A stretch of 62,707 nucleotides of DNA, counting the filler, from Stramenopiles sp. TOSAG23-3 (Eukaryota): assembly GCA_900128585.1 (NCBI GenBank). It is 25 parts of 25 records of this genome, joined end to end, with 100 filler letters (N's around TTAATTAATTAA, not from the genome) between each part and the next. Parts side by side here need not be neighbours in the genome. Positions count along the whole stretch, not along the records: positions 60,309 to 62,707 come from LT644842.1; 24 more parts are not named here. One strand, 5' to 3'. Under the pieces are notes generated by a model that did no database searches, was not told the origin of the DNA, and worked only from the letters and a program-made list of their open reading frames with translations. Both the position numbers and the translations under genes were made by a program. The number at the start of each line of letters is the position of its first letter. Position 1 is the stretch's first letter. Positions 7,296-62,707 of the stretch are shown here, one piece after another.

Positions 7296-7666
7296 AATCG
7301 TTTTATTATCTTACAAGTTTTAATCAACATAAAATAGTAATATCGCCACAACCTTAAACACAGAATGAAAGGGAAACTAAGTCTTACTATTAAAATCAAT
7401 ATGTTTTAAGTCAAAAAAGAAAAGAAAAAAGAAGGTAAAACCGTTCAAGAACCCAAACTCCTCCTTGTTCCAGAATANNNNNNNNNNNNNNNNNNNNNNN
7501 NNNNNNNNNNNNNNNNNNNNNTTAATTAATTAANNNNNNNNNNNNNNNNNNNNNNNNNNNNNNNNNNNNNNNNNNNNATGCATGATCCGAATCAGTGTGT
7601 GGAATTGCGTCGATGTCAGGAGACCCATAATCAACTTCCTCATCCGATGTCTCACTTATATGTGAA

Positions 7667-14830: not shown

Positions 14831-15141
14831 GTGATGCTGGGTCTGTACCAAACCCAACCCGTGCGTTTGTTTGGTTGGTTGGTTCGTTCGTTCGTCGGTG
14901 GATCGATCGCCTCCCCCCGTGCACCGTGTTCTTGTGTTTGCTTCTGTACGGTGAATTGTTTTACAGTAGCTTGTATTAAATAACTAGTTTAATAATTAGA
15001 CTGTCGATAATGAAGACATCGATAATAATAAATAATAGCTANNNNNNNNNNNNNNNNNNNNNNNNNNNNNNNNNNNNNNNNNNNNTTAATTAATTAANNN
15101 NNNNNNNNNNNNNNNNNNNNNNNNNNNNNNNNNNNNNNNNN

Positions 15142-19919: not shown

Positions 19920-20175
19920 TAAGGTCAATTCGTGATTATGACTAATAAAAATCATAAAAATCAAAATCGGTCGAGACAATCATTATCATTCCTATGATAT
20001 GTTACCATACGTTCCTGAACCCAATCATAATCCTCATAATCACGTATCTCCACCTCGGGCTGTGTTCCGTAATTTNNNNNNNNNNNNNNNNNNNNNNNNN
20101 NNNNNNNNNNNNNNNNNNNTTAATTAATTAANNNNNNNNNNNNNNNNNNNNNNNNNNNNNNNNNNNNNNNNNNNN

Positions 20176-22590
20176 CACAGATTAACCAACCCTTTGACTA
20201 GCGTTGAAATTGACGTTTTCACGGAGGCCTTTTTCATCACCAAAGTCAGCATTGCTACTAGTAATTTAAGAACAAACGGGGGTACCTTCAAAGTTTTTGC
20301 TAGCTGATCAACATTCTTGCCCCTGCAGCGGCCAAGTCTTATTTGTTGAATACCGTTAGCAGCGGACTCCGGCAACTTGCAGATTGCAGTAGACAAAGAG
20401 CTCCAATCTTTAGCAAAAGTCACATCTGCATCCGACACACTGTCGTTTCGCAAAAGTTCCAAAAATCCACTAACGCTTTTGACTCGTTTTCCTGTTTGCG
20501 ACGAGCTTGACGTTTTTTCGTGCGCCAATTCGTTGCAAATATCGACAATGCGCCCAATGTTTCCTCGACCAACGCTCACAACAGACTCAATTTGATGTGG
20601 ACTGACATCTTCAGTTTCATTATTTATCAGCAAGGAGTGGATTATTCCTTCCTTCAGAGAGAGACGCAGCGCCTGTTCATCTTGAGTCCGGGTGAGGTGA
20701 AACAATATCGCAATAGTTGCTTCTTCTACATGTATCCCTTCAATTTGCGAGATCTCCGTAATTGCTTGACGTAAGCTTTCTTTATCCTTTCTTGCACATG
20801 CTACTATGCTATACATTAAACCGTAGCTCATTCCGTAGAACTCGGCAGCCTCCATAACGGCCTTTTCTTGGCCCTTTGCTAGCCCTACTGCAAGGGATAA
20901 ATCTACCCCAGACTCTTCTAGTATTGACTTTAGCGATTTGTCACTTTCTACAAGTGCAACGGCCTTGATATGGGCCGGGTCTTGTGAATTTGAGTCTTCC
21001 AGGCTGTCTTCCTCCATTTTTTCTAGGAATTTAAACATTTGAATAACCCTGTCAGCAAACGTTTTTCGGACGATTTTTAGAACAGCAGAGTAAACTTTTG
21101 CAAAGATAAGGGTGGCAATTCCCGCTTTTGAGGCAAAAAAAACCATAAACGTAGCTGCAGCTGCTGCGTACGGGAGGTATATGTTTGGATTTATGAGACA
21201 GCCAAGTATCATCCACATCAGTGCTAGTCCGATGTACCATACAGGAATATTGGTGAAGAAAAATTTGTCGTTTGCCCGGAGACCTGGAGCGCGCAAATTG
21301 TAGACTACGAAGTGATGGCCTTCTGGATCTTCCTGGTACGAAGCAGCAGCTTCCTGAGCCCCAAAAGTAGCCAATTTGGAAAACGTTGGCCCGTTGCTCA
21401 TTTCGATCCCTTGTTGAACATAAAGGGCAGGACTGGTGTTGGTCCCGTTGGTGTTTGCGGGCTTTTCCATGAAATCACTGGCAAACCCAATTTGCTTCAC
21501 TTCTACTGAATCCTCGCCGAGGTTAATCGTGCTGACGCGCGGTCTTTCAACCGTTACGTACATGGAACCGTCCGTACTTTCCATTTTCAAGATGGGAGGA
21601 GTCTTTGCTGGGCAGTCGTCGACGTCCGTTTCTGCACACAAAATTGACTCGCCACTACAGGATATAGTATTTGGTGCCGCCGCCTCACCACTGATGGCAA
21701 GCGTCGAAGTGATATTTGAAGCATTCTGGTTCGGTATAATGCACTCTTCTGAAACGATGGTGACGTTTGCCGCAGCAAAGCAATACGATGCTTCTGGGTG
21801 TAAGTAATTCACCTGCACCGTCTCACTTGTTGTGACGAGGACATCCCCCCGTCGAGTTACGAGGGAACCAACACTAGCCTGGGCCTCCACTCTACTAGCA
21901 TTAAAATTTTCAAGGTGTATGCTGCCACGGGCGACGTTAACGTCGACCCCCCCTGCCCCAACGTTGACGCTGTTCAACGAGACGTCCGCATAATTTGCTG
22001 AAATTTTGAGAGCGGCATCGTCTTTAAAATACAGCTGAGTTGCTTCAGCGTGTTTGATGATGGTTTTTTCTGCGCTAATTGCAGATATTTTTAGAGACGA
22101 AATTGTCGATGCTTTCGAGTACTTTAATGTAACATGGCACCGTATCACGTCAATGGAATTGTCATCTTTTGAAAAGGTCGGCTGGCATCCCTTAAACCCT
22201 CCTTTCGCAACATGAAACTGTACTGTTCCTGCACTGAGGTTATCGTCGCTTTGTAATACCAAATTCGAGTCTGTCATCCCAATGGTCAGTTCGCTTTCTG
22301 TTGACAGTTCCATCTGTACGGCTTCCTGCTCGAACCAATCGATCAATACAAACGAAACTGGCAAGTAGATCGTTTGCGATATCAAAGCTGTGACAACGAA
22401 TATACGCACAATTCTTCTGCTTGCCAAGAACAGTAACATGAACGCGCACTTGATGCAGTCAAGAAAGTATTCTGCTGTCGACCTTGACCTCGGTGCAGTC
22501 CCGACGGTGGGCTTCTGGAGAGTTGTTTCCCCCTGTCCTTTAGACGCATGGTTCTCCGGGTCGGTCAAAGAGGAAGTTGCAGGATTGTCC
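20176..22590 (-). CDS. Fragment of a large membrane protein with a beta-rich (adhesin/DUF4097-like) ectodomain and helical tail
   Basis: Frame open across the whole contig; TM segments near both ends of a beta-strand-rich region (VDVNVARGSIHL...LVTRRGDVLV). Confidence 0.7.
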
Positions 22591-23242: not shown

Positions 23243-25060
23243 ATGGGCAATACTTTTCGAAAGAAACACCCGTTGGAACATCTTACAAAACCGACCGGTC
23301 TGTACCCTGAGGGTACTCCCAACTGGAAGGGTGCAGTGATTGCAAAATGTATTTATTCTGGTAAAATGGCACCTCGATTCCCAGGGGTCGAAGACGAGTC
23401 CGGAACGGTAAAGTGTGAGTGCCCAATATGTTTTTTGTATTATCCCGACCATGCCATGAACGCCACCAGTTGTTGCAAGCAGGAAGTATGTACAGAGTGC
23501 GTTTTGCAAGTTTTGAAACCCAGCGAACCGGCAACTTGCCCCTTTTGCAACAAAAACGGATTAAAGTTTGTGGTAAAGGTGGCGGCCGTAGAGCAGCCGG
23601 AAAGGTTCGGCTTATCGGCGGAGCAGTACGGCAGGTACGTCCAGGACGTGAGGCGTTTGAAAGAGAAAGGAAAGGCGGCGGCGAATTCAGAGAGCTCCCA
23701 GGCAAATTTAGTTACTGCGACAAAGAAAGAGCGCGCGGAGCACGAAGAGTACTGCACTCAGTTGAACCGCGCAGCTGAGTTAGAGCGACAGACTTCGCCG
23801 ACTCTCAAAGCCTTCAATAGGTCTGTGCAGGGTCGGCAAGTTCCATCGTACAGTTTAGACTCTTCAGGCGCTTTTAATAGAAACTACCGCGCCCCGCCTG
23901 CCCAGGGGAGACGGAGTGGCGGAGGCTCACCACGCAGGCGCGGAAGCCGACGTGGAAGAGTTTTGCGAGGGAACAGTGCCAGCGCTGCCGCGACGAACCG
24001 ACAGCAGCAATTGTCTTCGACCACATTTGATATCCCAGGAGATTTGGCGCAAATGCTGACCCAAGGAAACATCGAAGAGTTGATGATGGCAGAAGCCATA
24101 CGCAGGTCAATGGCGGAGAGCGCTACGTCCAGCTCAGAGGCGACACCAGGGGGCACTGTGAGCGGCACCGATGCCAACACTGAAGAGGATCAAGCGGTAT
24201 CTGAGGAAAATAGTAGGAAGGAAGAAACACCATTAGAAAAAGCCATACGGCTGTCGTTGCTGGAAGCGAACGAGCCGGAGGCCCTTCAGTCGACAGAGCT
24301 TTCCGTTGAGGATAGGCCAGCGAAGCGGGAAGACGGTGACCACGCAGACAACGAGGATAAGAAGGCCGCAGCAGACACTAGCATCGGCCGAAAGAGCGAG
24401 GTGCAAGAGAGCGTGGGCAATATCCATGCAAAGAATTTAGAAGATGCAAAATTTTTGTCTCGGGTTGAAGCTACTTTGGAGGACGACTGTAAGAAGGGTT
24501 CCGCCGATTCGAAACGAAGTGCTCGGGAGGTTGATGCCTCCACAGAAGTGAAAATACCAACCGTGCCACCTCAGGCTTTGGCACAACCACCATCTGAGAC
24601 TTTCGCAAATCGAGAAGAACACACTGGCAATGGCGCAACTGTAGAAACTAGTGAAACAATTGCCATCGAGGAAGCGTTGAAGCAAGACACGTCAGCAAAG
24701 TTGACCGTCCAAACATCAACACCAGGTGATACCGGTGCAGTCGTTGGCGGTGGAATTGGGGATGAAGTGATTGCAGGCCGGAAAAGCGACGAGGGTGGAG
24801 AAGTTTCTGAAAGCGCTGAGAGCACGGACCTTGACGCACGGAAACCGAGTGACGCTGAAGATAGCACAAGCGGACCGGTTAAAGAGCCTGACAGCACCCC
24901 AAGACCTGAAGTGCAAGCTACAAATTCTGCCGGTTCGAAAACCGAGGAACTTGAAGGAAGTTCTCTAGAAGTTCCAGGCAAGACGTTGCCGGCGCGGGAA
25001 GATGCCGAAGGCGACACACCTGTCGTTAAGAATGATGGTGCGGTGACAGAGCTGGAGTAA
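23243..25060 (+). CDS. Sip5/DA2/GW2-family RING protein with UIM motifs
   Basis: MGN myristoylation-type start, GKMAPRFPG, ECPICFLYYP..MNATSCCKQEVCTECVLQ...CPFC, UIM-like EELMMAEAIRRSM and LEKAIRLSLLE. Confidence 0.88.
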   Translation: MGNTFRKKHPLEHLTKPTGLYPEGTPNWKGAVIAKCIYSGKMAPRFPGVEDESGTVKCECPICFLYYPDHAMNATSCCKQEVCTECVLQVLKPSEPATCPFCNKNGLKFVVKVAAVEQPERFGLSAEQYGRYVQDVRRLKEKGKAAANSESSQANLVTATKKERAEHEEYCTQLNRAAELERQTSPTLKAFNRSVQGRQVPSYSLDSSGAFNRNYRAPPAQGRRSGGGSPRRRGSRRGRVLRGNSASAAATNRQQQLSSTTFDIPGDLAQMLTQGNIEELMMAEAIRRSMAESATSSSEATPGGTVSGTDANTEEDQAVSEENSRKEETPLEKAIRLSLLEANEPEALQSTELSVEDRPAKREDGDHADNEDKKAAADTSIGRKSEVQESVGNIHAKNLEDAKFLSRVEATLEDDCKKGSADSKRSAREVDASTEVKIPTVPPQALAQPPSETFANREEHTGNGATVETSETIAIEEALKQDTSAKLTVQTSTPGDTGAVVGGGIGDEVIAGRKSDEGGEVSESAESTDLDARKPSDAEDSTSGPVKEPDSTPRPEVQATNSAGSKTEELEGSSLEVPGKTLPAREDAEGDTPVVKNDGAVTELE

Positions 25061-27719: not shown

Positions 27720-29621
27720 AACAGCTCGTTCTCGTTCGAGGACCGGTTACCGCTGGACACCCCGTCACATATGCCGCCCCATTTCTACCAACAGGGCACC
27801 ACCGAGGTCGACGTCGAGACGTCCCTGAGCCTGGGAAAGCTGGAGAACGTGCTGAAGCGCGGGGGCGGGTCTGCCGGCGCCGGGCCGGGTGGGCGCACGA
27901 ACGCGTCCGAGGCGAACCGGATCCTCAAGATCGAGAACGAGCTGTTGGAGGCCCGCCAGCGCCTGGCCAAGAGCGAGGAGAGACTGGGCACCAACGTAGA
28001 GTCCCCGTTGTCGACGCTTCGGCGGCAGCTTGACATGGCACAGGGGATGGGGGTGGGGCCGCAGGTGACGATGTTCGAAGGGATCACCCGGCCGGACGAC
28101 GTGCGGGTCCGGAACGAGCTGAACGCCACGCTGCGGCGGCTGGAGGCGGCCGCCAGCCGGGAGGGGGCGCTGCGGATGGAGAACCACTACTTGCGAACGA
28201 GCAACAGGTTGGACGGAACTGGGGCCGGAGCGGTAGTCCCGACGGTAGCCTCAACGACCACGGGGGCGCGGACGATCAAAAAGCCCGACGTCGCCCCCAC
28301 CGCCACCGAGGCCGCGAGCGCCGCGGCCAACGACTCGGTGTCCAGGAACCTCATCCTTCGGTGTGCCCTCCTGGAAGAGAAGCTTGAATCGGCTGAGATC
28401 CGGGCAAACCGGGCCGAGACGACCGTCGAGGCGCTCGTCCAGCAGCTCAAGCGGATCCGGTCCCAGCGGACCCAAGAAGCGCTCGAGCGGGAGACGAAGC
28501 TGTACAGCCGGATCGAGGCGAACATGGCGAGCGTGTTCGACGTGACCGGGCCGTTGCTCGACACGGAGAACAAGGCGCACGAGCGTCACGCGGAAATCGC
28601 GGAGAACCTGCACCAATTGGACACCGTCATGCAGCGAAAGGTGGCGACTCTGCGAAACCGGGTAAAGCAGCTTGAGGGAGAGAACAGCAAGCTGGGCGAA
28701 GAGCTCCAGCTTCGCCCGATGTACAAAGACTACAAAGAGCTGCTGCACAGGGAGAACGCGCTCCACGACGTGATCCACCGCAACAACATCGCCGTGGACG
28801 CCGCCTCGCCGGGGGGAGGGAAGCCGGCGACCCAAGACGCCATCCGCAGGGACCGCACGCTGACTGGGGTGGACAGCGCCGACCTCGAGCACGCCCAGGA
28901 GCGCGTCAGTAGGTTCATGAAGGGGGAGAAACGGGTGCAGCAGCAGCGCAGCAACCAGTCCGAGGCGGCCGAGCCGAAGCCCGACGGGGACGGCATATTC
29001 TCCGGGCCATTACGCCCGCCGCTGGACCAGATATCGGTCCTCTGGGCGGCAGCGTCCGTGCTGAGGGACGTCGTGGACTACCTGAACGTCGACAGCGTGC
29101 TGGAGGTGCTCCCCAGGATCAAGGAGTTGTCTCAGGACGGCCATTTGCACTCCTCGTACCGACGGTTTGTCGAGGCCGCCACCGACGAGATCGAACGGGG
29201 GACGCGCATCGACGTGGGCCGTGTGTTCGACCCCGACAAGAAGGGCGCGAACGAAGCCCCAGGCGAGGCGAAGCTGCGAACGAGCGTTCTATCACTCGAC
29301 CAGGCCATGATTACGCTCGTGGGGCAGATGCGAGAGCGCAGGGCGATGGCGTTTGCCCAGACGGCCCCGCAGCTGCTCGTGCACCAGATTTTGGTGCAGT
29401 TCCAGATGCTCTTGAACGTCGACGCCGGCGACAGGGTGGTGCCCGCGCTGCAGAACCTTGTCTCCAAGCTCCGGGCTTCCAAGATGGTCCTCCAGAAGAT
29501 ACGGGGCCTGTTCGGGCTCCCTAGAAAGGTCGACGACGACGGTGACTTGTTGTCCGTGGTACAGCTCTACGTGCGGAACCTTGGTCTGGCCCAGGCTAGT
29601 GACTGGGCGGGGATAATGTGA
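27720..29621 (+). CDS. Coiled-coil protein, CEP70-like C-terminus, 5'-truncated
   Basis: Long coils; C-terminal ILVQFQMLLNV....VVPALQNLVSKL.....VLQKIRGLFGL resembles the CEP70 C-terminal helical region. Confidence 0.6.
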   Translation, partial: NSSFSFEDRLPLDTPSHMPPHFYQQGTTEVDVETSLSLGKLENVLKRGGGSAGAGPGGRTNASEANRILKIENELLEARQRLAKSEERLGTNVESPLSTLRRQLDMAQGMGVGPQVTMFEGITRPDDVRVRNELNATLRRLEAAASREGALRMENHYLRTSNRLDGTGAGAVVPTVASTTTGARTIKKPDVAPTATEAASAAANDSVSRNLILRCALLEEKLESAEIRANRAETTVEALVQQLKRIRSQRTQEALERETKLYSRIEANMASVFDVTGPLLDTENKAHERHAEIAENLHQLDTVMQRKVATLRNRVKQLEGENSKLGEELQLRPMYKDYKELLHRENALHDVIHRNNIAVDAASPGGGKPATQDAIRRDRTLTGVDSADLEHAQERVSRFMKGEKRVQQQRSNQSEAAEPKPDGDGIFSGPLRPPLDQISVLWAAASVLRDVVDYLNVDSVLEVLPRIKELSQDGHLHSSYRRFVEAATDEIERGTRIDVGRVFDPDKKGANEAPGEAKLRTSVLSLDQAMITLVGQMRERRAMAFAQTAPQLLVHQILVQFQMLLNVDAGDRVVPALQNLVSKLRASKMVLQKIRGLFGLPRKVDDDGDLLSVVQLYVRNLGLAQASDWAGIM

Positions 29622-30243: not shown

Positions 30244-32052
30244 ATGCTTGTGTGGAGGAGAGCAAGTGTGGAAACCAGATCAAACGATAGAACATTTGCA
30301 TGTTCCGAATTAGGCACAGAAGAATTTCTTGGCACGCGATTGATAACTGGTAGAACTATGGATTATGGAGGGTTGCCGCCCTTGCGGCACATACAGGTGG
30401 GCGTTCAGATAGGAGGGGGCAGGAAGTTAAGACGAAATATAGAGAAAAGAAAGCAAAAGGCAAATGCCACTTCAATCGCGAAACGGAAGCGTACCAGGGT
30501 AGGCATGGGGATGTCAACTGTATATACAAAAGGGAAAAAGAGTCAAGCGCAGGATCGCGATCGAGGGAATTCCCCCCCTTCACCTACTTTTGGGCGAAAA
30601 AAGGCAAAGGCACACCATGAAGATTTTGTGAACCAGAAGCTTCAGAACCACAGCCCGTACCGGTTTGGGGTAAGCTCTGGCCTCGAAAGTCCTGAGCCAA
30701 ATGCCGGAGGCTCTGTAATTCTGAATAGGCTGGCCGAAAAAATACATGCCCCGGAAGACTTTTTGATAGAACCGGGGGAGCCCCTTCATTCTCCTTCGGG
30801 AAGCCAACAGAACGAACTGTCTCCCACCCCGTCAATAACTAATAGCAAACGACAACTGGGCCCGAGGCCTGGGAACATAGTCAGGATTCGTGGCCGTACC
30901 AGCTGGGGTAGAAAACTAGAAAAAAATGTAGCCCAGATCAAGGGGACGACATTCAAGATTATAGAAGAGGAGCCACCCAAAGCTCACGAGTCTTTTTCTC
31001 ACGCGAGCCTAGACGAGGAGTTCAAACTCTGTTTTGTGCCTAAAGAACGGAACCCTGTTATCGAGCGGGCGACGCTGGAAGACCAGAAAATTTCTCTGCT
31101 CAACTCCAGGATGACGAACATGGCCCAAAATATCCAAGGCGGTCTAAAAAAACTAGGAATTTTTCCCACCGCTAGTGGGATGGTTCCCGTCTCCGATTTT
31201 CAGAGACTTGGGAAGCAGCTCAACATGGCGCCCAAGTATTTGGACCAGTTGGTGTATGGGAAAGCGGGTGTATGCGACGAGAACGGAAACGTTGATTTGG
31301 TCGCGTTGGGAATTCTGAAAACGAGCGTCGCCTCCCCGGTAAGAAAGAGAGGAGGACCAAGCGTTGAACAGGCGCAATACCACAGAAGTAGAAATGGCTT
31401 TAATTCGCCCATCTACATGAGCGCACAGTTAAATGTAGGAGCAGAGACAAAGAAATCGCTTATGAAAAAAAGCTCGAGCCTGCCCGCTCTCAGCCAGCAC
31501 AATACAATCGACCAAAAGGGCGTCCGGGCAAAAAACCCCCCGTGGAAGAGAGGCTTGGCTAGTGCTCGTTGGGGCGATGAGCATTACAGAAGCACGTTTT
31601 CGTTGACCCAAGGCCGCCAAGGCAGTGCTTTGTACGAAAAAAATAATTTTGAAAGAAAGAAAGTCCTCTTCTCAGAAATAGATCACCAGAAGAAAAAAAA
31701 GTTTAAACAGCACAGGCAAGCACTGTACAATGATCACGAAAACAAGCTTCAGAACCGGAGAGCGCAAGAGCACTGGCTGCAAAAGCACCTAGAAACGCGA
31801 AAGAGCAATACAATTATGAGACAGGCTGCAAGGTACGAAGATTTTCTGTCGAAAGAACGGATTCGCCGAGCGACGCTTTGGTCAGACTCTGGAAAGCATT
31901 ACCAAGACGGTTTACCGCAGCGGTTGGAACATCGAAAACACCAGTACAAACAAACAATAGACGACGGCTCTTACGCCACAGCAATGGGACGACGGAACGG
32001 TTTGCAAAAACGAGAGTGGGAGCGCGTGTTCAAAAGGAGTCCCGTGAGGTGA
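30244..32052 (+). CDS. Basic, largely disordered hypothetical protein (start may be ATG 30358)
   Basis: 602-codon open frame; no family recognised. Confidence 0.75.
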   Translation: MLVWRRASVETRSNDRTFACSELGTEEFLGTRLITGRTMDYGGLPPLRHIQVGVQIGGGRKLRRNIEKRKQKANATSIAKRKRTRVGMGMSTVYTKGKKSQAQDRDRGNSPPSPTFGRKKAKAHHEDFVNQKLQNHSPYRFGVSSGLESPEPNAGGSVILNRLAEKIHAPEDFLIEPGEPLHSPSGSQQNELSPTPSITNSKRQLGPRPGNIVRIRGRTSWGRKLEKNVAQIKGTTFKIIEEEPPKAHESFSHASLDEEFKLCFVPKERNPVIERATLEDQKISLLNSRMTNMAQNIQGGLKKLGIFPTASGMVPVSDFQRLGKQLNMAPKYLDQLVYGKAGVCDENGNVDLVALGILKTSVASPVRKRGGPSVEQAQYHRSRNGFNSPIYMSAQLNVGAETKKSLMKKSSSLPALSQHNTIDQKGVRAKNPPWKRGLASARWGDEHYRSTFSLTQGRQGSALYEKNNFERKKVLFSEIDHQKKKKFKQHRQALYNDHENKLQNRRAQEHWLQKHLETRKSNTIMRQAARYEDFLSKERIRRATLWSDSGKHYQDGLPQRLEHRKHQYKQTIDDGSYATAMGRRNGLQKREWERVFKRSPVR

Positions 32053-32746: not shown

Positions 32747-35155
32747 AAGAGCTCAAACTACCAATTGCGTCTTATAGGCGACAGGATCCTTTTCCACACA
32801 TCCATTATTGCCGCAATGACTTTGGTGATAAACGGCAGCACAACAGCTTACTTGCTCAAGTATTTGCGACTTAACCGTGTATCCAAAGCTAGTATCAAGA
32901 CGAAGTTGCGAGCAACTGTCCGCCTAGACCACGTGATAAAAAACAGAGCGAAACAACTCCACCGAGCAGAGTTCAGCACGTTCTTCAAGCAATTAACTGA
33001 ACAAGAGTGGACAAAGGTTTGGTACCATCTTCCCGTTCACTCAGAGGCGGTGTATGTTTTAAGAACAGAGAGCAAACACCGAGTGTTCGATGGCAACGAC
33101 GAGTCGCTGATTCCAGTAAATTTTCGTGGACGCTGGAGACGGTATAAAAAACATTGGGGATCAGAGGAGGTAAAGGACCGCGTGAACAAAATTTTGCGGT
33201 CTAATGCGACGGCTGATATTCAAGGGGTTGTGCATCGCATGAGAACACGCTCGATATCCAGATCGACGACTGTAGACTTTGGTTTAGACATGGAGGAAGC
33301 CCGAAGGCGCTTTGTTGCCGCCGCCAAAGGCATGTATAACGAGCAATTCACCGACGGGTTTATATCGATGTCTGCGGCTTACAGCCACCTAATCGAGGCA
33401 GAGGACCTTACGATTGACCACCCGGATAGGCCAATGGATCATTTTAATGCTACCCTAAGCTCCGCTGTCGAGTTACCGGGTTGCGCAAAATGCCTTTTGA
33501 AGTTCATGAAGAGGGGCCCTTTGAAATGTATTTCAAATTTTTTGCTTCAACGCCACGCCCTTATGGTGTTTGAGATACTGTCAAACTTTATATACGTCCA
33601 CGAGCGAGTGATGAGGCATTTGCAGTCAAGTCAAAACCATGAAGGGGTGCTTGGAAACAACGAAGCTCTTCGCTTGTCGTTTGAAAACAGAAAACTGCTG
33701 GAAGAGGCGCATGTGGCGTTGAAAGACTTGCACACACTTTTCCCTGATTTACTAAGGGAAGCAGGAACCAAAATGGCCGCAAGAGTCATGCTGGAAACGG
33801 AACGAGCGACGACTATGGAGGAGTACGAAGACGGCGAATTAATGTCAAACGAGATGAAGGCCATGATCCACGATACCGTTTCGTCAATAGCCAAAAGTAC
33901 AATCGAGGGAGACAGTTTTGCCGCTTGCACTAGCGTGGGAACACGGTTAGATGCATTAACGCTTGTCCAGAAAAACAATCGCGCTCGACCGTACCAGACT
34001 CTGGCACTCTTCCCAGACCCTATCTTACAAGAAATTGTGCGTGTCGGAAGCGAACGTTTTTACGAGCACGGAGAAATAATTTACAATGCACAGGATGGAA
34101 AGCTCGGGCTCCACTACATTGGCCGTGGCCATGCGATTGTTTGCTGTGTATTGAACGGTCCCCACGAGAACGATAATAGGGCAAGAAAAATATTCGAAAA
34201 TCTCCAACGTGGGCACAATGCAGCAGTGACGGCGGCAAGAAAATTGCGGAGGAAGGAGAAATCAGGGGGAAGGAAACTCTTCAGCGCAGTAGAAACGAAT
34301 CTGGGGCAGGCCATGCAAAAAGCTTCCCCCAGCCCGTCTAATCGATTGTCACGCCCTGTGATAGGTTTCGGTTTGGACAGTGAGAGAGCATTGGAGAAAG
34401 CGATGCACGGAGGGAAAATATCTACCGTATCGGCGATAAACCTTATGCCCCTGAAAGACACGGAAAAATCCCCACGATCAGACGAAGGCTTGCAAAGTAA
34501 TGCCGATAAGTTAAAACACACCAGCAGCGAACACGTCATGAGCATACCATTGCGGAAAAGGAGCAGCAAACGGGAACTTCTGGAGCTAGCCTCAGAGTGC
34601 GGGGCTGACATGGACAACAATGGATTAATAAGCGAGCACGAACTGGATATGTTCATCAACATCCAACAAATGTTTTCCTCGGGCACTGTTTCAATAATCA
34701 GGTCATTGCGGTTTGGGGACATAGCTGGATCCACTGAAGTGCTGCAAAACTTCAATAGTTACAGTAGCACTATGGAAGCCGAGAGTTCATTGCGTACCCT
34801 CTTCTTACCCAAACAGCATATTCTTAAACTCATGGAAAAATACAAAAACTTACGGAGTATGCTGTGGAAAGAAGCGGCCGTCGAGATAATTCAAACATCA
34901 GGGGTTTTCCCGGACGACGAGTACAAAAGGTCGCAAATTTGGAACAACATCGACGTTGCCTGTAGGCACAGCCATGTCATGTTGGTGAAAGCGTCATCGT
35001 CAATTCTGAAACTCAAAGAAGGTCATGGGATGTTCATCCTGAGCGGTTCTGTGAAGTTTGAGAGCGAGGAATACGGTACGTATCACTATGCGAGTGCATC
35101 GGACGTTGCCCGCCACTACACTTGCTCTGGAGACGATGCAGTCTTGATGGTTTTT
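32747..35155 (+). CDS. SOS1/SLC9C-like Na+/H+ exchanger: last TM plus cytosolic tail with CNBD and EF-hand; truncated at both ends
   Basis: ILFHTSIIAAMTLVINGSTTAYLLKYLRL (CPA1 final helix), EEARRRFVAAAKGMYNEQFTDGFI, EYEDGELMSNE, CNBD motifs. Confidence 0.85.
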
Positions 35156-35255
35156 NNNNNNNNNNNNNNNNNNNNNNNNNNNNNNNNNNNNNNNNNNNNT
35201 TAATTAATTAANNNNNNNNNNNNNNNNNNNNNNNNNNNNNNNNNNNNNNNNNNNN

Positions 35256-38413: not shown

Positions 38414-40110
38414 CTACGCATCCGCCTTCTGCGCGCTCGGGTCCAACCCTTTCGACTCAAACGTAGTGCTTTTGCCCACCGTCACGAACTCGTCGACAAT
38501 CTTCTTCAAATGGGCGACAATTTCGGAGTCACTCTCCTTCTTCGCGGCGTTCGTGATCATCTTTACACGCGACGCGTAGACCAGGGCGGTCTGCGTCTCG
38601 GCGGCGTTGTAGTCTGCGGGACTCGCGTTCACGAACATCAGCGTTTTCGCGTTTCCCCCCAGGCCGTCCGCCAACAGCATGGTCAGCTTGTTGTTCCGGT
38701 AAGGGATAAACTTTGCGCCCGTCGACAGGCTCGAAATGACATCCCCGAGGGCACTTAGACTCTGGTTAATGCTCTGCGCCTCTCGAAGGCGCTCTTTTGT
38801 CGCCCCTGTCTTCCCCACCCGCTCCGACCCTGCAAGATCCACCAGGGTAAGCTTCCCGACGTTCGTCTTGCCGGACGTATGGTCGTGGTTCTCTATTATG
38901 ATGCTGAAAATCAAGTGCGACCGAGAGGACACGGCGTTCATTTTGGTCGCCCCGACGTGCCTGGCGCCGTTCCCGGTGTTGAAAAGGTCCATCATTTCCT
39001 CTGGGGTATTCACTTCCACGATCTCAATCCCTTTCACGAAAACCATGCCTTTTGCATCCTTCTTGATGTCCAGTTTCGGGGGCTGCTTGTGCATCCCTTT
39101 TTCTTTCTTGTGCTTCGCCGTGTACAACAGATCAACCAACGTGTCGTTGTACAGCTCTGCCATGTATGCCTTGCACTTGATCGTCGCTTTCTTCCCTAAA
39201 TCGCCCTTCAACTGAAATATGCGGTCAATCGCGCGAGGGGTAATGCCCTTCAGCTCGGGCAGTGCGCCGAGCATCGTGAACGATTTCCCTGCCCCGGTCT
39301 GCCCGTACGCAAAGACGCACACGTTGAACCCATCGAATGCCGAATTCACCAAACTGCTGCAGTCTTCGAACACCTCCTCCTGCGTGGATGAGGGGGTGAA
39401 GCACTGGTCGAACACGAACTGTTTCGTACCCTTTTCCCCCTCCACATTTATGGTGACTTCGTCTGGGAAGTCGACGCAGATGTGGTTCCCGCGCTCTATT
39501 TCGGACTTGCTCAAGGGCCGCACACGGCAGTAGACACGAATTTTCCCCTTCATGTCCTCCATCATGTTCCAGTACCGTTTCCGCAGCACGGACTCCTCCT
39601 TGTACAGCGTCTGAAGCTCTCCCTGCCGCTTCAGGGCTGCGGCAGCAGCCTTCTTCGCGTCTTCGCACTCTGCTGCCTGGGCCTTCAAGGTTTCCATCTC
39701 TTTCCCCATCGCGCCCATCGCCCCCACTTTCTTCTTCAGCGCGTCGCGCTCTTTCTTCATCTCCGCAACGCTTGCCTCCAGTTCCTCGTGCGCCTTCTTC
39801 AACTTCTTCTCGTTCCGCTCCAAGATCGATATTTTCTTGTCAGACTCCTGCTTCGCTTTCTCCGACTCTTTCTTGTGCTTCTTCTCCACCTCTTTCATTT
39901 TTCGCTCCATAACCTGCTTCGCCTGGTCGTTTCCCGAGCTGGACGCGGCCTTCTGCTCGGCCTTCTCTAACTTCCCCTCCATCTGCTTCAGCTTGACCTT
40001 GCCGTCCTTTGCCTCCTTCTCCACCTTCTTCAGCTTTTGTTGGAGTTCCTTCAGTTTCTTTTGGTCGTTGGCGTTTCCGCCCCCACTTCCACCTCGCTTC
40101 TTTCTTCTTA
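38414..40110 (-). CDS. Kinesin-14 (C-terminal motor, KCBP-like), 5'-truncated
   Basis: Neck LRKRYWNMMEDMKGKIRVYCR, GQTGAGKS, SSRSH, DLAGSER, IPYRNNKLT. Confidence 0.95.
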
Positions 40111-52810: not shown

Positions 52811-55208
52811 GATGGGTCAAGTCAACGTTGTACGATCTGCAAAGAATACGGACACAGATACGACCAATGCCCAAACGTATCAGACCCGCAACACCATGAG
52901 TCACGCCGAAACAATTACCGAAATCGTTCAAACCAACAAAATCGGAACAAAACCAAAAATCGCCAGCGCGACAACTACCGAAGCGAAAGCGCCGAAAACG
53001 CAAAGCAGATACAAGCTTTGCAGAAGGCCCTACAGCAAGTCATGCGGAATCCCAACACCTCATTGCAAGCAAACATCGTTACCGAAGGACATTGGTCTGG
53101 CATACCAAAGTCACAAAACGTCCTCATGATCTCGACCCCGGAAAAGGTGAGCAAACAAATTTCACAAGCAAATCAAAATCGTGAAAATCATCTCAAATTA
53201 TACAAGCTCAAAACGATCGAACCGTACTCACTCAAATCAATCGAAACGACAACCAAAGAAAATCCAAAATTCGATATAACATTCAAGGGTGAGATTGCTG
53301 GAAAACGACTATACGAGCTGACTGAAGCCGAAAAGAACCGACTGCTTTACGAACTCCTACAGGATCGAGACGACGACATACCCACGACGTACGCTACACT
53401 GAAAAGGCAACACGATGCCTACAAAGAAAGCAAGAAAACAAAATCGAAACCACTGGCAGAGGACGAGTTGACAACCAAGCATCCGGACGAGCTAAACCAC
53501 GAACAACTCGACCGCGTTCTGGAAAGTCAAGCACACAAGGACAACCACGACGGTGACAAGAAAATAGGCGAACAAGACGACACCATCGATCTAACGAAGA
53601 ATGAACCAGACGAAAAGATGCCAGCTCAAACACACGAACCTCGAGATTTCAACCAAGCATACGTGCAAGCACCGATCGACGAAAATGACATGACTGCTAG
53701 CGCACCACCATCGCCATTTGGTTACAAATCATACAAGGAAAGTACTCCCTCGGACGCGGACGCGAACAGCGAAATGCAAAATTGGGTCGAAGCACGCGTC
53801 ATAGCAAACTCACCATACGACGAATACTGTGAAGACACACTGACGCAACTATTGATCGCCAAGCGGAGCAAAACGCTAAAAGAAGTCAACGACAAAATCC
53901 GACAACTCAAATACGAGCTTGCCGCCCTCGAAGAACAACGAAATCTGTATCGACTGCCAATCACAGACTTACTTAACCCAAAGGTAAACTCAAACATTGA
54001 AAGCCCGGACTACGCAAGGAACCGGAGCAACCGCTACGACCCACACAGGCGACAATATGACAAGAAATCGCCCAGAGGAAGACACTCCGGCAAGATTCAT
54101 CAACACAAACCATCAAAAGCCATATTGGAAAAGCAAAGGACTCGGGAACTCGACAAAATCAAGGCACGTATGCACCGCCAACAACGACAATTGAATCAGG
54201 TAACGACTGCAATACAACGACAGAAAATTCGAACTCCAGCCGCACGAAAGGTCAATCCTAACCACCACGTATTCATGATAAACGGCACACCTCGCAGATC
54301 AGAGAGATTACGGAAACGAAACAGGCACCCACAGTCCACGTTTGACAAAAACTCCTGGGTCCTGGACAGCGGAGCCACAGTGTCATACGTCAACTCCCTA
54401 CGCTACCTATCAAACGTCGAACTGCTAGCCACACCAGCAGAAATCGGATGTGCACTTTCCGGAAAGAAAGAAGTCATCAACTACTTCGGCACACTTCCGA
54501 ACGGAATGCAAGCACTTTACGCCCCGAATTTCATTTCAAATCTGATATCAGCACAAGACGCCACAAAATGTTTTGGAAAACTTACACTCTCAGCAACCGA
54601 AATAACGGCAAACGTACAGGGACGAGAAACCCAAATCGCAGAATTCAACGACGGACAATATATAATATCACCAGAGAAATTCCTGTCGATACCTGCTACA
54701 CGACCGTGCACGACGCCCCTGCACGCAAACCTGGTAGCGACAATCGACGATGCCAAACTTCGATTCCGCCAAACAGGCGCACCCGGACTAGGAAAACTTT
54801 GTTCCCTACAAAACCACATCAACGGTTTTCCGAAAATCGCACCAGAAGACGGTCGACGACTTTTCAGGCACCACGACGTTATCAAAACAATTGCAACCAC
54901 CAGACAAATTGCAACCTCCTTCAAGCATACCAATCGAAATGAGGATCACCCGGAACAACGAGCATACAAATTCCTCGAGAAAATCAGCTGCGACACCGCT
55001 CACGAACCGAACCACCCGTCCATCAACGGGGATCACCAATGGGAATCCATCAAATGCCACGGAACGAACTATGGATGGGTCCTCCCATTACAAGACGTAA
55101 AAGACCTGCGCCGCGAACTGCCCAAGTTTCTAGACAACATCCAAAACCACTGCGGCATGCCAATACGGATCATAAAAACCGACAACCATCAGTGCTACAA
55201 AAACTCAT
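52811..55208 (+). mobile_element. Ty1/copia-like LTR retrotransposon Gag-Pol internal fragment (Zn knuckle, protease, integrase start)
   Basis: Single frame open from 52811: CTICKEYGHRYDQC, WVLDSGAT, ALYAPNFISNLIS, then integrase LEKISCDT...IRIIKTDN. Protease-integrase order is copia-type; strongly A/C-rich sense strand. Confidence 0.88.
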
Positions 55209-55309
55209 NNNNNNNNNNNNNNNNNNNNNNNNNNNNNNNNNNNNNNNNNNNNTTAATTAATTAANNNNNNNNNNNNNNNNNNNNNNNNNNNNNNNNNNNN
55301 NNNNNNNNA

Positions 55310-57708
55310 AATTTCTACAAGAGCGTGAAAGTTTGCGCCCACTGCTACGTTGTGTATACCACGTTGGATCGGGCCCGCGAGATCTTGCGGATGCGAGAAG
55401 AAGAGGCCCGTGCGGCTAAAGCGGCCCGGCGCATGGCACAATCGACTGTTCCGCTTCTGGAAGACATGTCGTCCCAGTTTGATGCAGATGTGCGGGCCAG
55501 GGCGCATGTCATGGGGGGGACTGTGCGGCAGCGCCAGGGTGGGTCGCAGCTCAGCCCCGGTGCCAGCACCGACGAGGTTGGGCACGGGGGGATTACTTCC
55601 CCGCTGGTCCTTCCTACGCTTGCAGTAGTGGAACCCGACTCGCTTCAGTTGGATGAATCCCCAATTAGAAACGGTAGAAAGTCGCCCGAGATGGCAGAGC
55701 ATGAACGAAGAAGTCGAAGTCAAACGATGCCGTGGAAGGGGGAAGAGAGAACAGCCATGAAGACGGCCAAGAATCAGCTCCGTGAGCGCAGGAGACAACG
55801 CGAGTTGACCCGGGGCAACGAAAAAATGGATAGATTCGAAGGCCTTGAAGAGTACATACGAAAGGACGCAAAAGTAGAAGAAAAGGCGGAGAGTGTCGTC
55901 TCTTCGGTGGAGGACGAGGATACGTGGGAAGCAAAGAAAGAATCGTCTGCGGAAGATCATGGCGTTGTCCTTGTCGTAGACGAAGAGCCACCAACTCGCA
56001 CCTTGTGCGTAAATGTTTTAGAAAACAATTACTTCGAAGTGGACGTAGCCAGCGACGGGAACCGGGCCCTTGAGATGGCGAAGGAAAGAAAGTACGACGC
56101 CATCCTTGTCTCTCGCGGTTTGCCTGGCATCGATGGCATTGAATTGACGAAGCTAATCAGACGCAAAGAGGCAACGGACGAAGCAAATCTACCACCCCCT
56201 AAGTTTGGGGAGAAATCCAGAAAGGTCATGCGGGTCCCTATCATCGCGTACACCGACATGGCATCGCAGGAAGACTTGCGGCTGTACATGGAAGTGGGAA
56301 TGGACGGGTGCGTTAGCAAGCCTTTGAACGAGCAAGCTTTGTTGGCGACGATGGCGGCAGCTGTGCCGCACCACAAAGGCCCCAGCCAACAGCGATCCCC
56401 ACAGGGCTTTCGTAGTGGTGGGGGAAAGGGGGGAAAGCGCCACCAACCAAATTTTCGGGCGCCCTCAACAAGCGCAAAAAATGGGACGTCTGGTCAATTT
56501 CGTGGGTCTACCACAAAATTGCAAATGGCTTCCTCGACGTCTATTGTGAATAAGTCGTTGACGCTGCCTGTTCCCATGGTCACGCCGGTGACGGGCGGAA
56601 TTTTTCAAATGGATGCTGATACCGCAATTCCTTACACAATTGTTGGTCAACGGCATGATAATTCCCGTCTGTTCAATTTTGTTGTATGCCAAGATTTGTT
56701 TGACACGTGCGAAACCATGCAAATTTTCTTCCGCCCCATCGTTGCCAAATATCCAGGAATGCAGGTTTTGGTCTGGAATTACCCCGGCCAAGCATTTTCC
56801 GAATGGAGGAAGGACGTAACCCTGAACAACAAGTATCTTGCCGGCTGCTTGGATGCACTTCTTCGCCACGTTAGTGTCGAGGGGACTGGGGAGTTTCGAA
56901 CGGACGGCTCCCCTTTCTACTTGGTTGGGTTTGGTAATGGAGGAAATGTTGCGTCGTATTTTGGTTGCCATTACGCTTCTAGCGGGCCGTTTTCGATGTC
57001 TCTGAGAGCCGTTCTACTGCTGAATGGTTTCTCGTACGTTGGTCCGCACTTGGCGGGTGTTCTGCACGATTGTATGAATGTGTTTGCGTGTTCCCCTGCA
57101 AATCGTCCCGATTTGCCCGTGTACTTTTGGACAAGGTTTCTTTTTTCGGCCTCGTATTTGACACGAGTGTCCGCTCCCCTGGCGTTGAATTTATACACGG
57201 CGGTGCACAACCCTATTACATTAGAGGGAAGGATACAACTTTGCCAAGGCGCCTTGGCAAACACAGACCTTCGAACGCCGTTGCGAAACCTCCATTATCC
57301 CATGATTGCTGTCCACTCCGCCCAAAACGGGCTTGTTAAGCCCAGCCATATTGCAGCGCTAGTCGATGCACGTGGAGGGGAAGTTCGATCGCTTCAAAAG
57401 GCGCTCAAGTATCGCAAAAAACTATGCGTTATATGGATGAAAGCTGGGCATGAACTGTTTCAAGAGTGTCGAAAGCCATTGGCTAATTTATTTGAACAAC
57501 TTGCCACGGGCTTCCACGAAACGCATGATGTTTCCTTCTTTCCCGACAATGCGGGACCGGTCGGGCAGCGCACCAGCGGTGGGCTTGGGGCCATTATGGA
57601 CCAGTCGGTTTTAAGCGGGGGGTTGAGTGCTAGCCTTTCCGGGACAATAGGCGGTGGCGGGAGCATGCTAGCCCCTGGCGGTGGAAGCGGCAGCATGAGA
57701 AGCCCTCC
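55310..57708 (+). CDS. Receiver-like domain + alpha/beta-hydrolase-like domain protein; truncated at both ends
   Basis: VLVVDEE...YDAILVSRGLPGIDGIEL...PIIAYT...GMDGCVSKPL; QVLVWNYPGQA, FYLVGFGNGG, AGHELFQE. Confidence 0.85.
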
Positions 57709-57810
57709 NNNNNNNNNNNNNNNNNNNNNNNNNNNNNNNNNNNNNNNNNNNNTTAATTAATTAANNNNNNNNNNNNNNNNNNNNNNNNNNNNNNNNNNNN
57801 NNNNNNNNAA

Positions 57811-60154: not shown

Positions 60155-60310
60155 AACACGTAGAGGTGGGAAGCGGTTTGTGCCTGGAACTATTAAGGTT
60201 CAAGAAAGNNNNNNNNNNNNNNNNNNNNNNNNNNNNNNNNNNNNNNNNNNNNTTAATTAATTAANNNNNNNNNNNNNNNNNNNNNNNNNNNNNNNNNNNN
60301 NNNNNNNNAC

Positions 60311-62707
60311 CATACCTTGAAAGACGAGACCAGTGTAGATATTGTGAGGTCGCGCGTGAAACAAATGCGAATATCGTCGGTGCCGTTGCACCAGAAACGA
60401 ATTTTGGAGAAGATAAAAACGAGGCATGTAACGCTTGAAGATTTGAGGGATGCCCTAGACGATCAGGAAGAGGCCTTCGCGAACTATGAAAATATCGCCA
60501 TTGACTTACAGAAGCAAAACCAACTATTAGCAAAAGACTTCTATAAATTTGACGACGAGCAGAAAACATTTTTGAGAGACATACAGCAAGCCGTGGAGCA
60601 TCGGCAACATTACACCGCTGAGTTGGAACAACTTCAAGTGACGAAAACAAAAATAGGATCCTTGAAGAAAGATTTGGTATCGATGCTAGATGAATGGCGA
60701 GAGCTGAAGGCAAAGGTTAGAGAAGAAAGGGAATTGTACGACGGTTATAAGAACGGCCATCTGCTCCTGGAAAATGAGGTGAAGGCGGAAACAGGGGCTG
60801 TCCGAGCATGGTCCGAAGATTTGAAGAAGACTCGGGAAAGGCTCTATCCGCGAGATCACAAGTACGGAGATTTAGAATTTTTACTGAAAAAAAGTATGGC
60901 GAAGAACCAGTTTGCCTCCATGAGATCGTACATACTGAAAATAGTTCAGCGAATGGTGGAGCCCGGTGTGGATGCGTCTCGCGGCAACGGTGATGGTGCT
61001 GAAAGAAAAGACGACGACGAACTGGGCGGCGTCCCCGACGATTTTATCCCGATAGTAAACAAAGCTCAAGCCATTGTATTGGACCACGAAATAGACGCCA
61101 TCCACGATGTGAAGAAGAGTTTTCTTAAAACCGTGTCGTCTCCCGCTTCCAGTTTAATGTCCGCCAATGCTCTTTTGAAAAAACACTTGGCCCGTGCAAA
61201 TTCAATCGGCATGCTTGCCTGTCCACCCTACCGCAACATGTTTGCGCTGGTAAAACTGTACTCCGGCGATATTGAAGAGTACGACACGCTTTCACATTTT
61301 ATATCACAATTTGCAAACAATTGGGTAGAGCATTTAGAAGAATCGTTTTCATCTTTTCCGCAAACTGAAAACATACTCAGAGCCGCACTGGTCCTTTTAG
61401 GAAATTTTGCGTATGAAAATGTCCAGACGTGGAGCGATATTGTTGAGACTCTGAAGTCTTCCCCCGTTTTATACACTGTAAAGAATTTTGACCCATTTAC
61501 GATATCCCCAGAGCACGTCTCGTTTGCCAAAAAGTGCATACACGGCATAGATGGGGCGAAGCTATTCGGGCGGTCGATTTCGGAAGTCGGGTCATTTTAT
61601 AGGTGGGCAAAGCAGTGCATCAAGCTAGCAGACGGTGTCGCGGAGTCCAAAGCAGCGAAAATATTGGAACATGCCCCGACGCCAAAAGGCGAACACTGGG
61701 TGATGCACCCGGACGCGCCTTGGCATAAATCACATGTAAATTCTAGAAGGGGCGAAAGTGGTTTTCCAAGTGCGAAGAAAAGAAACAAGATTGGTTCGAA
61801 GGGGAATAAGAACGAACCGCAGGCGCCCCCGAAAGCACACGACGTCGAGCCTTCTCTGCCAGAATGGCCCACAGCCCTCCGGCTGATTCCAAAGCCTACT
61901 GGTAGATACGGCGAAACTACAAAGCGTATGAAAAGGTTGGAACACCCAGAGATCAAAACGCCCCACTTAAGGGCAGAGCCAAACGATGGACAATCGCAGA
62001 CGAAAATTATTCCCCGCAACATTGCGAAAAAGTCTATTCCAACGCAGAAAAGTGATGGCGCAGACTTTCTTGCACAAACTGGCCATAAAGGAGGACAAAA
62101 GAAATTGGAACGGCTTAAAAATACGTACATAGAAAATCCTAAAGTGACGTCCCGGTTCATGTGGTGTTTGGCACTGACAAACGTTATAATTTTGATTGTT
62201 TTATTAAGCTCATTTTATGACCTAGAGGGTTTTGTGAAACGAGCAGGCAGCAAAGTGGCTTCGGCAACCCAAAGCGGGGCTGTTGCAGCTGCAAATAGAG
62301 TAGGATTCGGGGAAGGTGGGTTGATGGGAGGGGTTGCAGAGGTAGTCAATATTAGTGCTGGAAATTTAGTTTTGCGCGATGGGCAGATTTCAGCCTCAAA
62401 GTTATCGGGGGGGCTATTTGCACCGTCTACAAATTATAGTTTTCTCGGGTCTACCATTGAAAACTCTGGGACAATCTTAGAGGTGGACATTAAAAGTGGG
62501 ACGATAAGCGGGGTAAGCATAAGCGATACCGACATGGTGATTGGCGCAGGAAACACCTTGGATGTCTCAGGCGGCCAGTTGGTTCTGGACGATGGACAGA
62601 TTCCAGGCGAGAAAATATCGTTTGGTGATTTAAACGTCGCAGGCAGTGTTTCGCTGGGCAGCGCGAGTACCGATACCATAACGATAAAGTCCCGTGTAGT
62701 TCACAAC
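60311..62707 (+). CDS. 799-codon open frame (missing from ORF track, no stop in window): coiled coil, dynein MTBD-like domain, TM helix, fibre-like ectodomain
   Basis: Translated by hand with no stop from HTLKDETSV to TITIKSRVVHN; TM FMWCLALTNVIILIVLLSSFY at about 62156-62218. Confidence 0.85.

Follow-up and report, generated by a model that had tools for sequence, protein, structure and literature searches.

The closest ectodomain relatives of the protein analyzed in this work are uncharacterized type II repeat proteins of dinoflagellates, e.g., A0A6T1AGB4 (P0116), and the similar unnamed proteins P0003, P0004, P0006, P0017 and P0117 (E 1e-31 to 1e-22). The protein is encoded by the last piece (LT644842.1) of a joined stretch of DNA from Stramenopiles sp. 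TOSAG23-3 (assembly GCA_900128585.1); the whole stretch that was analyzed, 62,707 nt with filler, is called the window below. In the dinoflagellate-type proteins, as in the window protein, tandem repeat copies follow a membrane anchor. However, their anchor is located within the first ~60 residues, with a coiled coil on the luminal side and then a domain containing ~10–14 Cys, while here it comes after at least 785 residues. The Cys-rich domain of the Alexandrium type is also lacking: there is no Cys in residues 638–799 of the window protein, and the C-terminal part of P0115, a longer and nearly identical protein of the EukProt set, has two.

The second group of relatives is formed by phage tail fibres and spikes with a C-terminal Peptidase_S74 chaperone (P0040, P0041, P0044, P0090 and the open reading frame (ORF) of the IMG/VR locus L002). 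They have in common with the window protein the repeat 'TxxDIxxGTIxGxxIxxxDxxxGxxxTLDVSxGxLxLxxxQIxxxKI' and the motif 'LGSxxTDTITIK'. Unlike them, the window protein has a transmembrane anchor, a eukaryote-like gene and a presence in an oligo-dT RNA library, and both it and P0115 lack Peptidase_S74, Mtd_N and any PHROG or Pfam family.

An earlier reading of this DNA, made from sequence alone (below, the sequence-only reading), had brought in a third system, the microtubule-binding domain (MTBD) of the dynein stalk (PF12777). It proposed a type II membrane protein in which an MTBD-like domain, a single transmembrane helix and a phage-fibre-like ectodomain tether an extracellular fibre directly to microtubules. 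What the window protein shares with the dynein MTBD is a hand-matched LLG...W...L...NFD...I...W string and predicted short helices; it differs in showing no HMM or phmmer similarity, no flanking antiparallel coiled coil and no AAA+ motor. CLIMP-63/CKAP4 is a type II membrane protein that links the endoplasmic reticulum to microtubules. In the PKD2-mastigoneme system of Chlamydomonas, a membrane protein bridges axonemal microtubules and extracellular hairs (PMC7265326). Both systems are analogues only in function of the tether, in which microtubule contact is itself a proposal. PKD2 is a multi-pass channel, and no sequence relationship of these systems to the window protein was found.

The reading that we prefer has a probability of roughly 0.6: the gene would encode a lineage-specific single-pass type II membrane protein, with a coiled coil that joins chains and an exoplasmic, phage-fibre-type and probably trimeric rod that serves as a surface fibril or adhesin. 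In such a protein the ~785 residues ahead of the helix would stay cytoplasmic: a very basic disordered head, the coiled coil, which would oligomerise the chains, the helical region of orphan type and the Pro-rich linker, which is again basic. At least 500 residues after the helix would lie on the outside of the cell, or else within a secretory compartment, and form an elongated, probably trimeric, beta-rich fibre. Glycans of prey bacteria, of particles or of a substrate might be bound by this ectodomain, as they are by phage fibres with the same module.

The following features were distinguished in the last piece:

60311–62707, plus strand: open frame of 799 codons (P0001), without a start or end of its own, hence an internal fragment of a gene that has ~1300 codons or more
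60368–60733, plus strand: heptad-rich, probably coiled-coil segment (residues ~20–141; heptad score reaching at least the 99th percentile obtained by shuffling)
60911–61675, plus strand: orphan region predicted to be all-helical (residues 201–455), with no family, PDB or homologue match
61676–62152, plus strand: basic Pro-rich linker, probably disordered (residues 456–614; from composition)
62156–62218, plus strand: single transmembrane helix (residues 616–636; Kyte-Doolittle peak)
62165–62482, plus strand: 318-nt in-frame segment absent from P0115 (residues 619–724; from comparison with P0115)
62345–62554, plus strand: fibre repeat copy 1 (residues ~679–748; homology to the repeats of Alexandrium monilatum P0116, HMMER, alignment A1)
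62555–62707, plus strand: fibre repeat copy 2 with the 'GSVSLGSASTDTITIK' motif (residues 749–799; same evidence), cut by the contig end

Fibre-type repeats of the proposed ectodomain

The C-terminal tail consists of G, S and T by 36% and contains the motifs LVLRDGQISASKL, LDVSGGQLVLDDGQIPGEKI and GDLNVAGSVSLGSASTDTITIK, all C-terminal to the transmembrane helix; the motifs quoted in the sequence-only reading, and the order of the parts, were found where it had placed them. A HMMER search of 1.84 billion representatives (E ≤ 1e-3) gave 113 matches, and 112 of them map to residues 628–799 (best E 1.6e-31; 23 at E ≤ 1e-10). The repeat unit is ~65–70 residues long and has the consensus ...TxxDINxGTIDGxTIATSDITVGAGKTLDVSAGTLTLAxxQISGDKIxGG... 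in alignment A1. About 1.7 copies are located in residues 679–799 and another one near residues 1099–1161 of P0115, i.e., the repetition is tandem. The closest relatives of this part are of the eukaryote type, not phage proteins, and the named one, A0A6T1AGB4 of Alexandrium monilatum, is 45% identical to it over 109 residues of its tandem repeats (E 4e-22).

The domain company of the repeats was revealed by a Pfam scan of 93 of the 112 matches (cut-off 1e-5). No Pfam family was present in 79 of the 93 carriers. The families found were Peptidase_S74 (eight carriers), Laminin_G_3 (two) and, in one carrier each, Mtd_N, C1q, phiJL001 Gp84_N, Bactofilin and DUF4183; among them Peptidase_S74, Mtd_N and C1q are families of trimeric phage fibres and spikes. 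PHROG tail-fibre families were matched by the repeat carriers P0040 and P0012, and the P0007 cluster is labelled 'tail fiber domain-containing protein' (Ekhidna) by NCBI. In the IMG/VR relative L002, the repeat match lies inside a 1551-aa ORF (3567–8222, plus strand) that matches six PHROG tail-fibre or baseplate families. It includes three copies of the 'G.V.LG...TDTITIK' motif, shared with residues 782–794 of the window protein, and the TDTITIK-type motif may be a useful marker of this fibre class. Another IMG/VR locus, L001, was rejected as a relative because its match is spurious and falls inside a helicase ORF.

As judged from these alignments, the C-terminal repeats are homologous to those of phage tail fibres and of the dinoflagellate type II membrane proteins. 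The earlier description of the ectodomain as phage-fibre-like is thus borne out by 112 repeat matches, some of them together with Peptidase_S74, Mtd_N or PHROG tail-fibre families. It should be noted that the label 'fibre-like' refers to sequence homology and domain company, not to a match of folds. The AlphaFold2 (AF2) model of residues 640–799, built on a 30-sequence alignment, has a mean predicted local distance difference test (pLDDT) score of 75, with values of at least 90 over ~70 residues. The modelled monomer has no regular intramolecular secondary structure, as would be expected of a single chain taken from an intertwined fibre. With this model, Foldseek gave no match to PDB or BFVD at E ≤ 0.001.

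The repeat is a module for which no Pfam model exists, yet it is common to tail fibres of phages, giant proteins of bacteria and type II membrane proteins of eukaryotes. That the last-named proteins contain it appears to be undescribed in the literature surveyed: within this limited survey, no paper dealt with eukaryotic fibre-repeat proteins (dinoflagellates, horizontal gene transfer) and none linked tail fibres with heterotrophic flagellates or MAST-4. The survey likewise gave no description of the present architecture, and no full-length homologue of it was found. The carrier gene studied here is expressed and geographically widespread, and it belongs to an uncultured marine protist. If the ectodomain is a glycan-binding fibre, it could be considered as a receptor at the cell surface, e.g., for prey or substrate, in organisms whose surface biology is barely known. 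It would then also illustrate the movement of fibre modules between viruses and eukaryotes.

Integrity of the gene and topology of its product

The ORF fills the whole last piece of the window (60309–62707, 2399 nt). Read from 60311, frame 1 contains 799 residues and zero stops, while the other five frames hold 15–62 stops each; the chance of 799 stop-free codons is ~3e-21, as calculated from base composition. Both statements of the sequence-only reading on this point, that the frame is uninterrupted and that it is missing from the ORF track, proved correct. The frame was omitted from the default ORF listing because it runs off the end of the window, and a listing with open ends shows it.

At least half of the sampled words of the gene were present in 20 of the 24 public runs listed. 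These runs come from 13 studies, all marine, one of which may be the source of this DNA; RNA libraries account for seven of the runs, and one of these libraries was primed with oligo-dT. Four runs, each from a different study, were compared at the level of contigs. The DNA contig X5 record 10 spans 61425–62568, the RNA contig X10 record 3 spans 61944–62533 and the RNA contig X9 record 14 spans 61487–62228; the first two have 0 gaps, and so does the third. The comparison reported neither joints nor indels nor loose ends in the four runs. Since independent DNA and RNA contigs bridge the helical region, the linker, the transmembrane helix and the repeats without gaps, the link between these parts is real, and since they are colinear with the window contig, this stretch of the ORF contains no intron. 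In particular, the interval 61630–62340, for which read or transcript support had been sought, is spanned gap-free by X5 record 10. The gene is genuine, transcribed and derived from a widely distributed marine protist.

These data bear directly on the possibility that unrelated cytoplasmic and fibre-coding parts were joined in this contig by chimera formation or faulty assembly. Single-cell and metagenome assemblies do generate chimeras, and one database protein departs from the ORF: P0002 (ENA, 319 aa) is identical to residues 1–126 (60311–60688) and continues with 32 unrelated residues. However, this divergence was not seen in any DNA or RNA contig of the four runs, and the tail of P0002 probably stems from faulty assembly at the end of a contig in a different data set. 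Contigs from different studies (DNA X5, RNA X9 and X10) agree and bridge all parts gap-free, and a mis-assembly shared by all data sets is improbable given contigs obtained run by run. Furthermore, the same N- and C-terminal parts are linked independently in P0115, the 1203-aa EukProt protein that belongs to the same 90% cluster as P0002. A chimeric origin is accordingly almost inconceivable and can be regarded as essentially refuted.

Comparison of P0115 with the ORF revealed 616 identical residues out of 618 up to W618 and 75 out of 75 from V725 onwards. P0115 extends the ORF by 169 residues upstream and by ~340 residues downstream, the latter including the further repeat copy. Its 169-residue N-terminal head is hydrophilic, with a net charge of +28 and a pI of 10.8. 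Within this head, at residues ~24–75, a unit of ~30 residues (..KNAKRSLRKSNSPSKKV..LEEMFGTT..) is directly duplicated.

A single transmembrane helix had been postulated, and it is supported by Kyte-Doolittle hydropathy, used here in place of a dedicated predictor of transmembrane helices or signal peptides: the hydrophobic segment FMWCLALTNVIILIVLLSSFY at residues 616–636 gives a 19-residue maximum of 2.27 and is the sole peak that high. The N-terminus of P0115, hydrophilic and basic, shows no signal peptide. When a sole span is preceded by ~785 residues, the N-in/C-out orientation is the default in signal-anchor insertion. Three further observations point the same way: (i) the charge flanking the helix is +3 on the N side against +1 on the C side, in weak agreement with N-in; (ii) N-glycosylation sequons are distributed unevenly in P0115, with one among the 787 residues that precede the helix position and nine among the 416 that follow it, against 3.9 and 4.9 expected from shuffling, and in the window protein, with none in 614 residues before the helix and two in 162 after it; (iii) in the relatives P0006, P0017 and P0116–P0118 the same repeats are located C-terminal to an N-terminal hydrophobic anchor. 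For a type II membrane protein, the single span and the lack of a signal peptide are thus supported, while the orientation is suggested by charge, sequons and the dinoflagellate relatives.

Several points weigh against a type II surface fibre. The N-in/C-out topology is plausible but is deduced from heuristics, and the role of a surface fibril or adhesin, which the protein may have, is assigned purely by analogy. No solved chain among the PDB sequences matched the repeat profile at E ≤ 1. In a tblastn search of 50,697 cultured-phage records, no match was obtained with the C-terminal 160 aa or with P0098, a result to which the low-complexity filter may contribute. The absence of Peptidase_S74, Mtd_N, any Pfam family (E ≤ 1) and any PHROG family was established for both P0115 and P0001, although P0115 may itself lack the true C-terminus. 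The fibre-protein ORF is the sole ORF on its contig, which leaves its function without genomic context. The host can be assigned to stramenopiles only tentatively, through sequence relatives of one gene on an unlinked contig, and the GC content at third codon positions (GC3) spans 0.47–0.93 among the window contigs, because of which the assembly may be mixed. Finally, P0115 is devoid, in frame, of residues 619–724, i.e., of 106 aa comprising the transmembrane helix and the first fibre repeat, and there may be a soluble second form, whether allelic, an isoform or a product of faulty assembly in the other data set.

The last point can be extended to the proposal that the true product is the soluble P0115 form, the 318-nt segment being an insertion, either intron-like or specific to the strain. 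The protein would then have no membrane anchor. The near-complete identity of P0115 and the ORF on both sides of the in-frame skip speaks for it. At the same time, the edges of the segment are TG..AG or GT..GA, not GT..AG, and no DNA repeat was found flanking it. The segment is present gap-free in X5 record 10, X10 record 3 and X9 records 14 and 16, and RNA contigs of two studies (X10 record 3; X9 records 14 and 16) include both of its edges; no joint was detected in the four runs, though contigs drop rare variants. Its distal half is clearly coding: the alignment with the Alexandrium repeats runs unbroken through residues 674–782 (E 4e-22), and many HMMER matches begin at residues 674–690, inside the segment. 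Because both edges occur in RNA contigs and the distal half is coding, we take the form with the transmembrane helix as real and consider it improbable that the soluble form is the true product. A rare second form may nevertheless accompany the membrane form, since contigs hide rare variants.

The putative cytoplasmic region and the proposed dynein-like domain

The N-terminal part of the window protein includes the heptad-rich segment, called a coiled coil from a crude heptad score against shuffles and not from a dedicated predictor; in Pfam this segment gave only weak noise of coiled-coil type (E 0.05–7). The linker at residues 456–614 contains 19 Pro and 31 K/R against 16 D/E (net charge +15, pI 10.2). 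Between them lies the orphan helical region, which includes the stretch described earlier as MTBD-like (about 61361–61626, within residues 201–455). The string ILRAALVLLG...SFYRWAKQCI is indeed present there, at residues ~355–437 (about 61373–61621). The proposal to be examined is that residues ~352–440 are a divergent MTBD of the dynein type that tethers an extracellular fibre (a hair, capture filament or extrusome) to microtubules.

Searches for families and homologues gave no support to this proposal. Pfam-A hmmscan found no family at E ≤ 1 in the whole 799-aa protein, PF12777 included; with residues 293–460 at E ≤ 10 it again gave no PF12777, only Tad4 at E 0.13, and it should be mentioned that HMMER filters drop most matches above about E 0.1. 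By phmmer at E ≤ 10, no dynein chain was found among 177,635 distinct PDB sequences, a library that presumably includes solved dynein MTBDs; the only match was 2fdr_A (E 0.084–0.82), an unrelated, hydrolase-like 'conserved hypothetical protein'. Dynein was also absent from the 113 matches in the 1.84 billion representatives, and the ESM Atlas feature search returned no usable match for the cytoplasmic region. Scanning of JGI metagenome contigs with residues 200–460 gave 218 pattern matches, none of which was confirmed. A word-index search, which covers cluster representatives of 439–1399 aa (P0115 is not a representative), found nothing at E ≤ 0.001 for the whole protein and nothing at E ≤ 1 for residues 200–460.

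No homologue of the helical region was found in the protein libraries, JGI contigs or IMG/VR, and the region was modelled from its single sequence. This AF2 model of residues 225–460 is composed entirely of helices, with a pLDDT of 41.5 and a predicted TM-score of 0.26, values too low for the model to be relied upon. Model helices 128–146, 150–158, 161–167, 176–195 and 203–229 correspond, at this low confidence, to residues 352–453, so that short helices in succession do occupy the stretch in question. Structure searches with this model gave only generic helical matches. The dynein heavy chain 7z8f_e appeared at Foldseek rank 40 among 14-3-3 proteins, which would favour the proposal if the match were not so weak (E 1.4, TM-score 0.25, low-confidence model).

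As its architectural hallmark, the dynein MTBD caps a coiled-coil hairpin with antiparallel arms. In the window protein the main heptad signal lies ~200 residues upstream of the region (residues ~20–141), and after it the crude score gives a sole heptad window at residues 421–451. The helix that follows the region ends at ~453, and from ~456 the Pro-rich linker takes the place of a second stalk arm. An antiparallel CC1/CC2 hairpin around the MTBD-like region is thus absent by heptad score and sequence. As for the motif itself, the dynein consensus was fitted by eye after the fact, and its spacings are only partly reproduced (9 residues from LLG to W, not 3).

Since every Pfam, PDB, homologue and Atlas test was negative or empty, we rate the dynein MTBD reading as very unlikely, despite the true presence of the motif string and the precedent of Chlamydomonas PKD2 with mastigonemes (PMC7265326). 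Microtubule tethering and the involvement of flagellar hairs or extrusomes are speculation. In the limited literature survey, the only papers on MTBD-like domains concerned TTLL11. The fusion of a microtubule binder of the dynein type to a fibre outside the cell would be remarkable; it is unsupported here, and what remains is an orphan architecture.

Basic regions of the microtubule-associated protein type are capable of contacting the cytoskeleton. If the window protein makes any such contact, the two basic disordered stretches are plausibly at least as good candidates for it as the MTBD-like helices. A broader proposal can be formulated, namely that a bacterivorous protist displays a phage-fibre receptor-binding module as a trimeric surface fibre, which would recognise the surfaces of bacteria or particles. 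The single helix would couple it to a long cytoplasmic coiled-coil scaffold that engages the cytoskeleton, possibly microtubules, by its orphan helical domain, its basic tails or both. We regard it as a long shot; if true, the protein would be a hitherto undescribed type of receptor for capturing prey or anchoring hairs.

Origin of the contig and other pieces of the window

The window contains 24 copies of TTAATTAATTAA, each inside a run of N, with 0.01 expected by chance. These spacers (at 2471, 4997, ... 60253) separate 25 pieces of 2399–2426 nt arranged in decreasing order of size, and one of the pieces has an internal 5-N gap. The pieces are unrelated contigs joined artificially, because of which no argument from neighbourhood is valid across a spacer; the last piece is open at both ends, so that the fibre-protein gene is truncated on either side. 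The other window contigs contain neither a second copy nor a paralogue of this gene.

The other contigs contain intron-free eukaryotic genes, including those for a kinesin, an OATP transporter, ABC transporters and the beta subunit of Rab geranylgeranyltransferase (Rab-GGTase). The best named relatives of the latter are from stramenopiles (Ectocarpus, Pylaiella, Chrysoparadoxa and oomycetes; 53–57% identity), and unnamed relatives reach 68–75% identity. GC and GC3 are 0.47 and 0.50 in the fibre-protein gene.

Another possibility is that the gene belongs to a giant virus or a virus-derived element and encodes a membrane-anchored fibre of a virion or virus factory. In its favour, repeats of this type are characteristic of viral fibres, and the orphan cytoplasmic part lacks cellular homologues. 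The contig, a short one, is not linked to a cellular gene, and the weak, non-significant BFVD rows include giant-virus proteins. Against this, no relative of residues 1–620 was found in 2.9 million IMG/VR contigs (four pattern matches, none confirmed), and the repeat region gave two weak IMG/VR loci, one of them spurious. The near-identical P0115 belongs to a protein set of eukaryotes, and dinoflagellate transcripts are among the closest repeat relatives. The GC and GC3 of the gene resemble those of cellular-looking contigs, e.g., the Rab-GGTase beta contig (0.50 and 0.54). A viral origin thus seems unlikely, and we retain the single-pass surface protein of a protist as the preferred reading.

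Three other ORFs of the window stand out by high GC3: a tetratricopeptide repeat protein (0.93), an ORF of unknown type (0.87) and a kinesin (0.78), at 12635–14857 (minus strand), 27771–29621 (plus strand) and 38414–40024 (minus strand). In the fibre-protein ORF, Rab-GGTase and several other ORFs GC3 is ~0.5, far below these values. The high-GC3 ORFs may reflect mixed organisms or strongly biased genes.

In addition, six long ORFs of 602–814 aa, several of which fill their contig, have no Pfam family at E ≤ 1e-5. They are located at 20124–22568 (minus strand) and at 23243–25060, 27771–29621, 30244–32052, 32765–35203 and 53018–55264 (plus strand) and may represent further orphan proteins of the same assembly. 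An 811-aa ORF (55325–57760, plus strand) also fills its contig; it contains a response-regulator receiver domain (PF00072, E 9e-20) as the only recognised domain.

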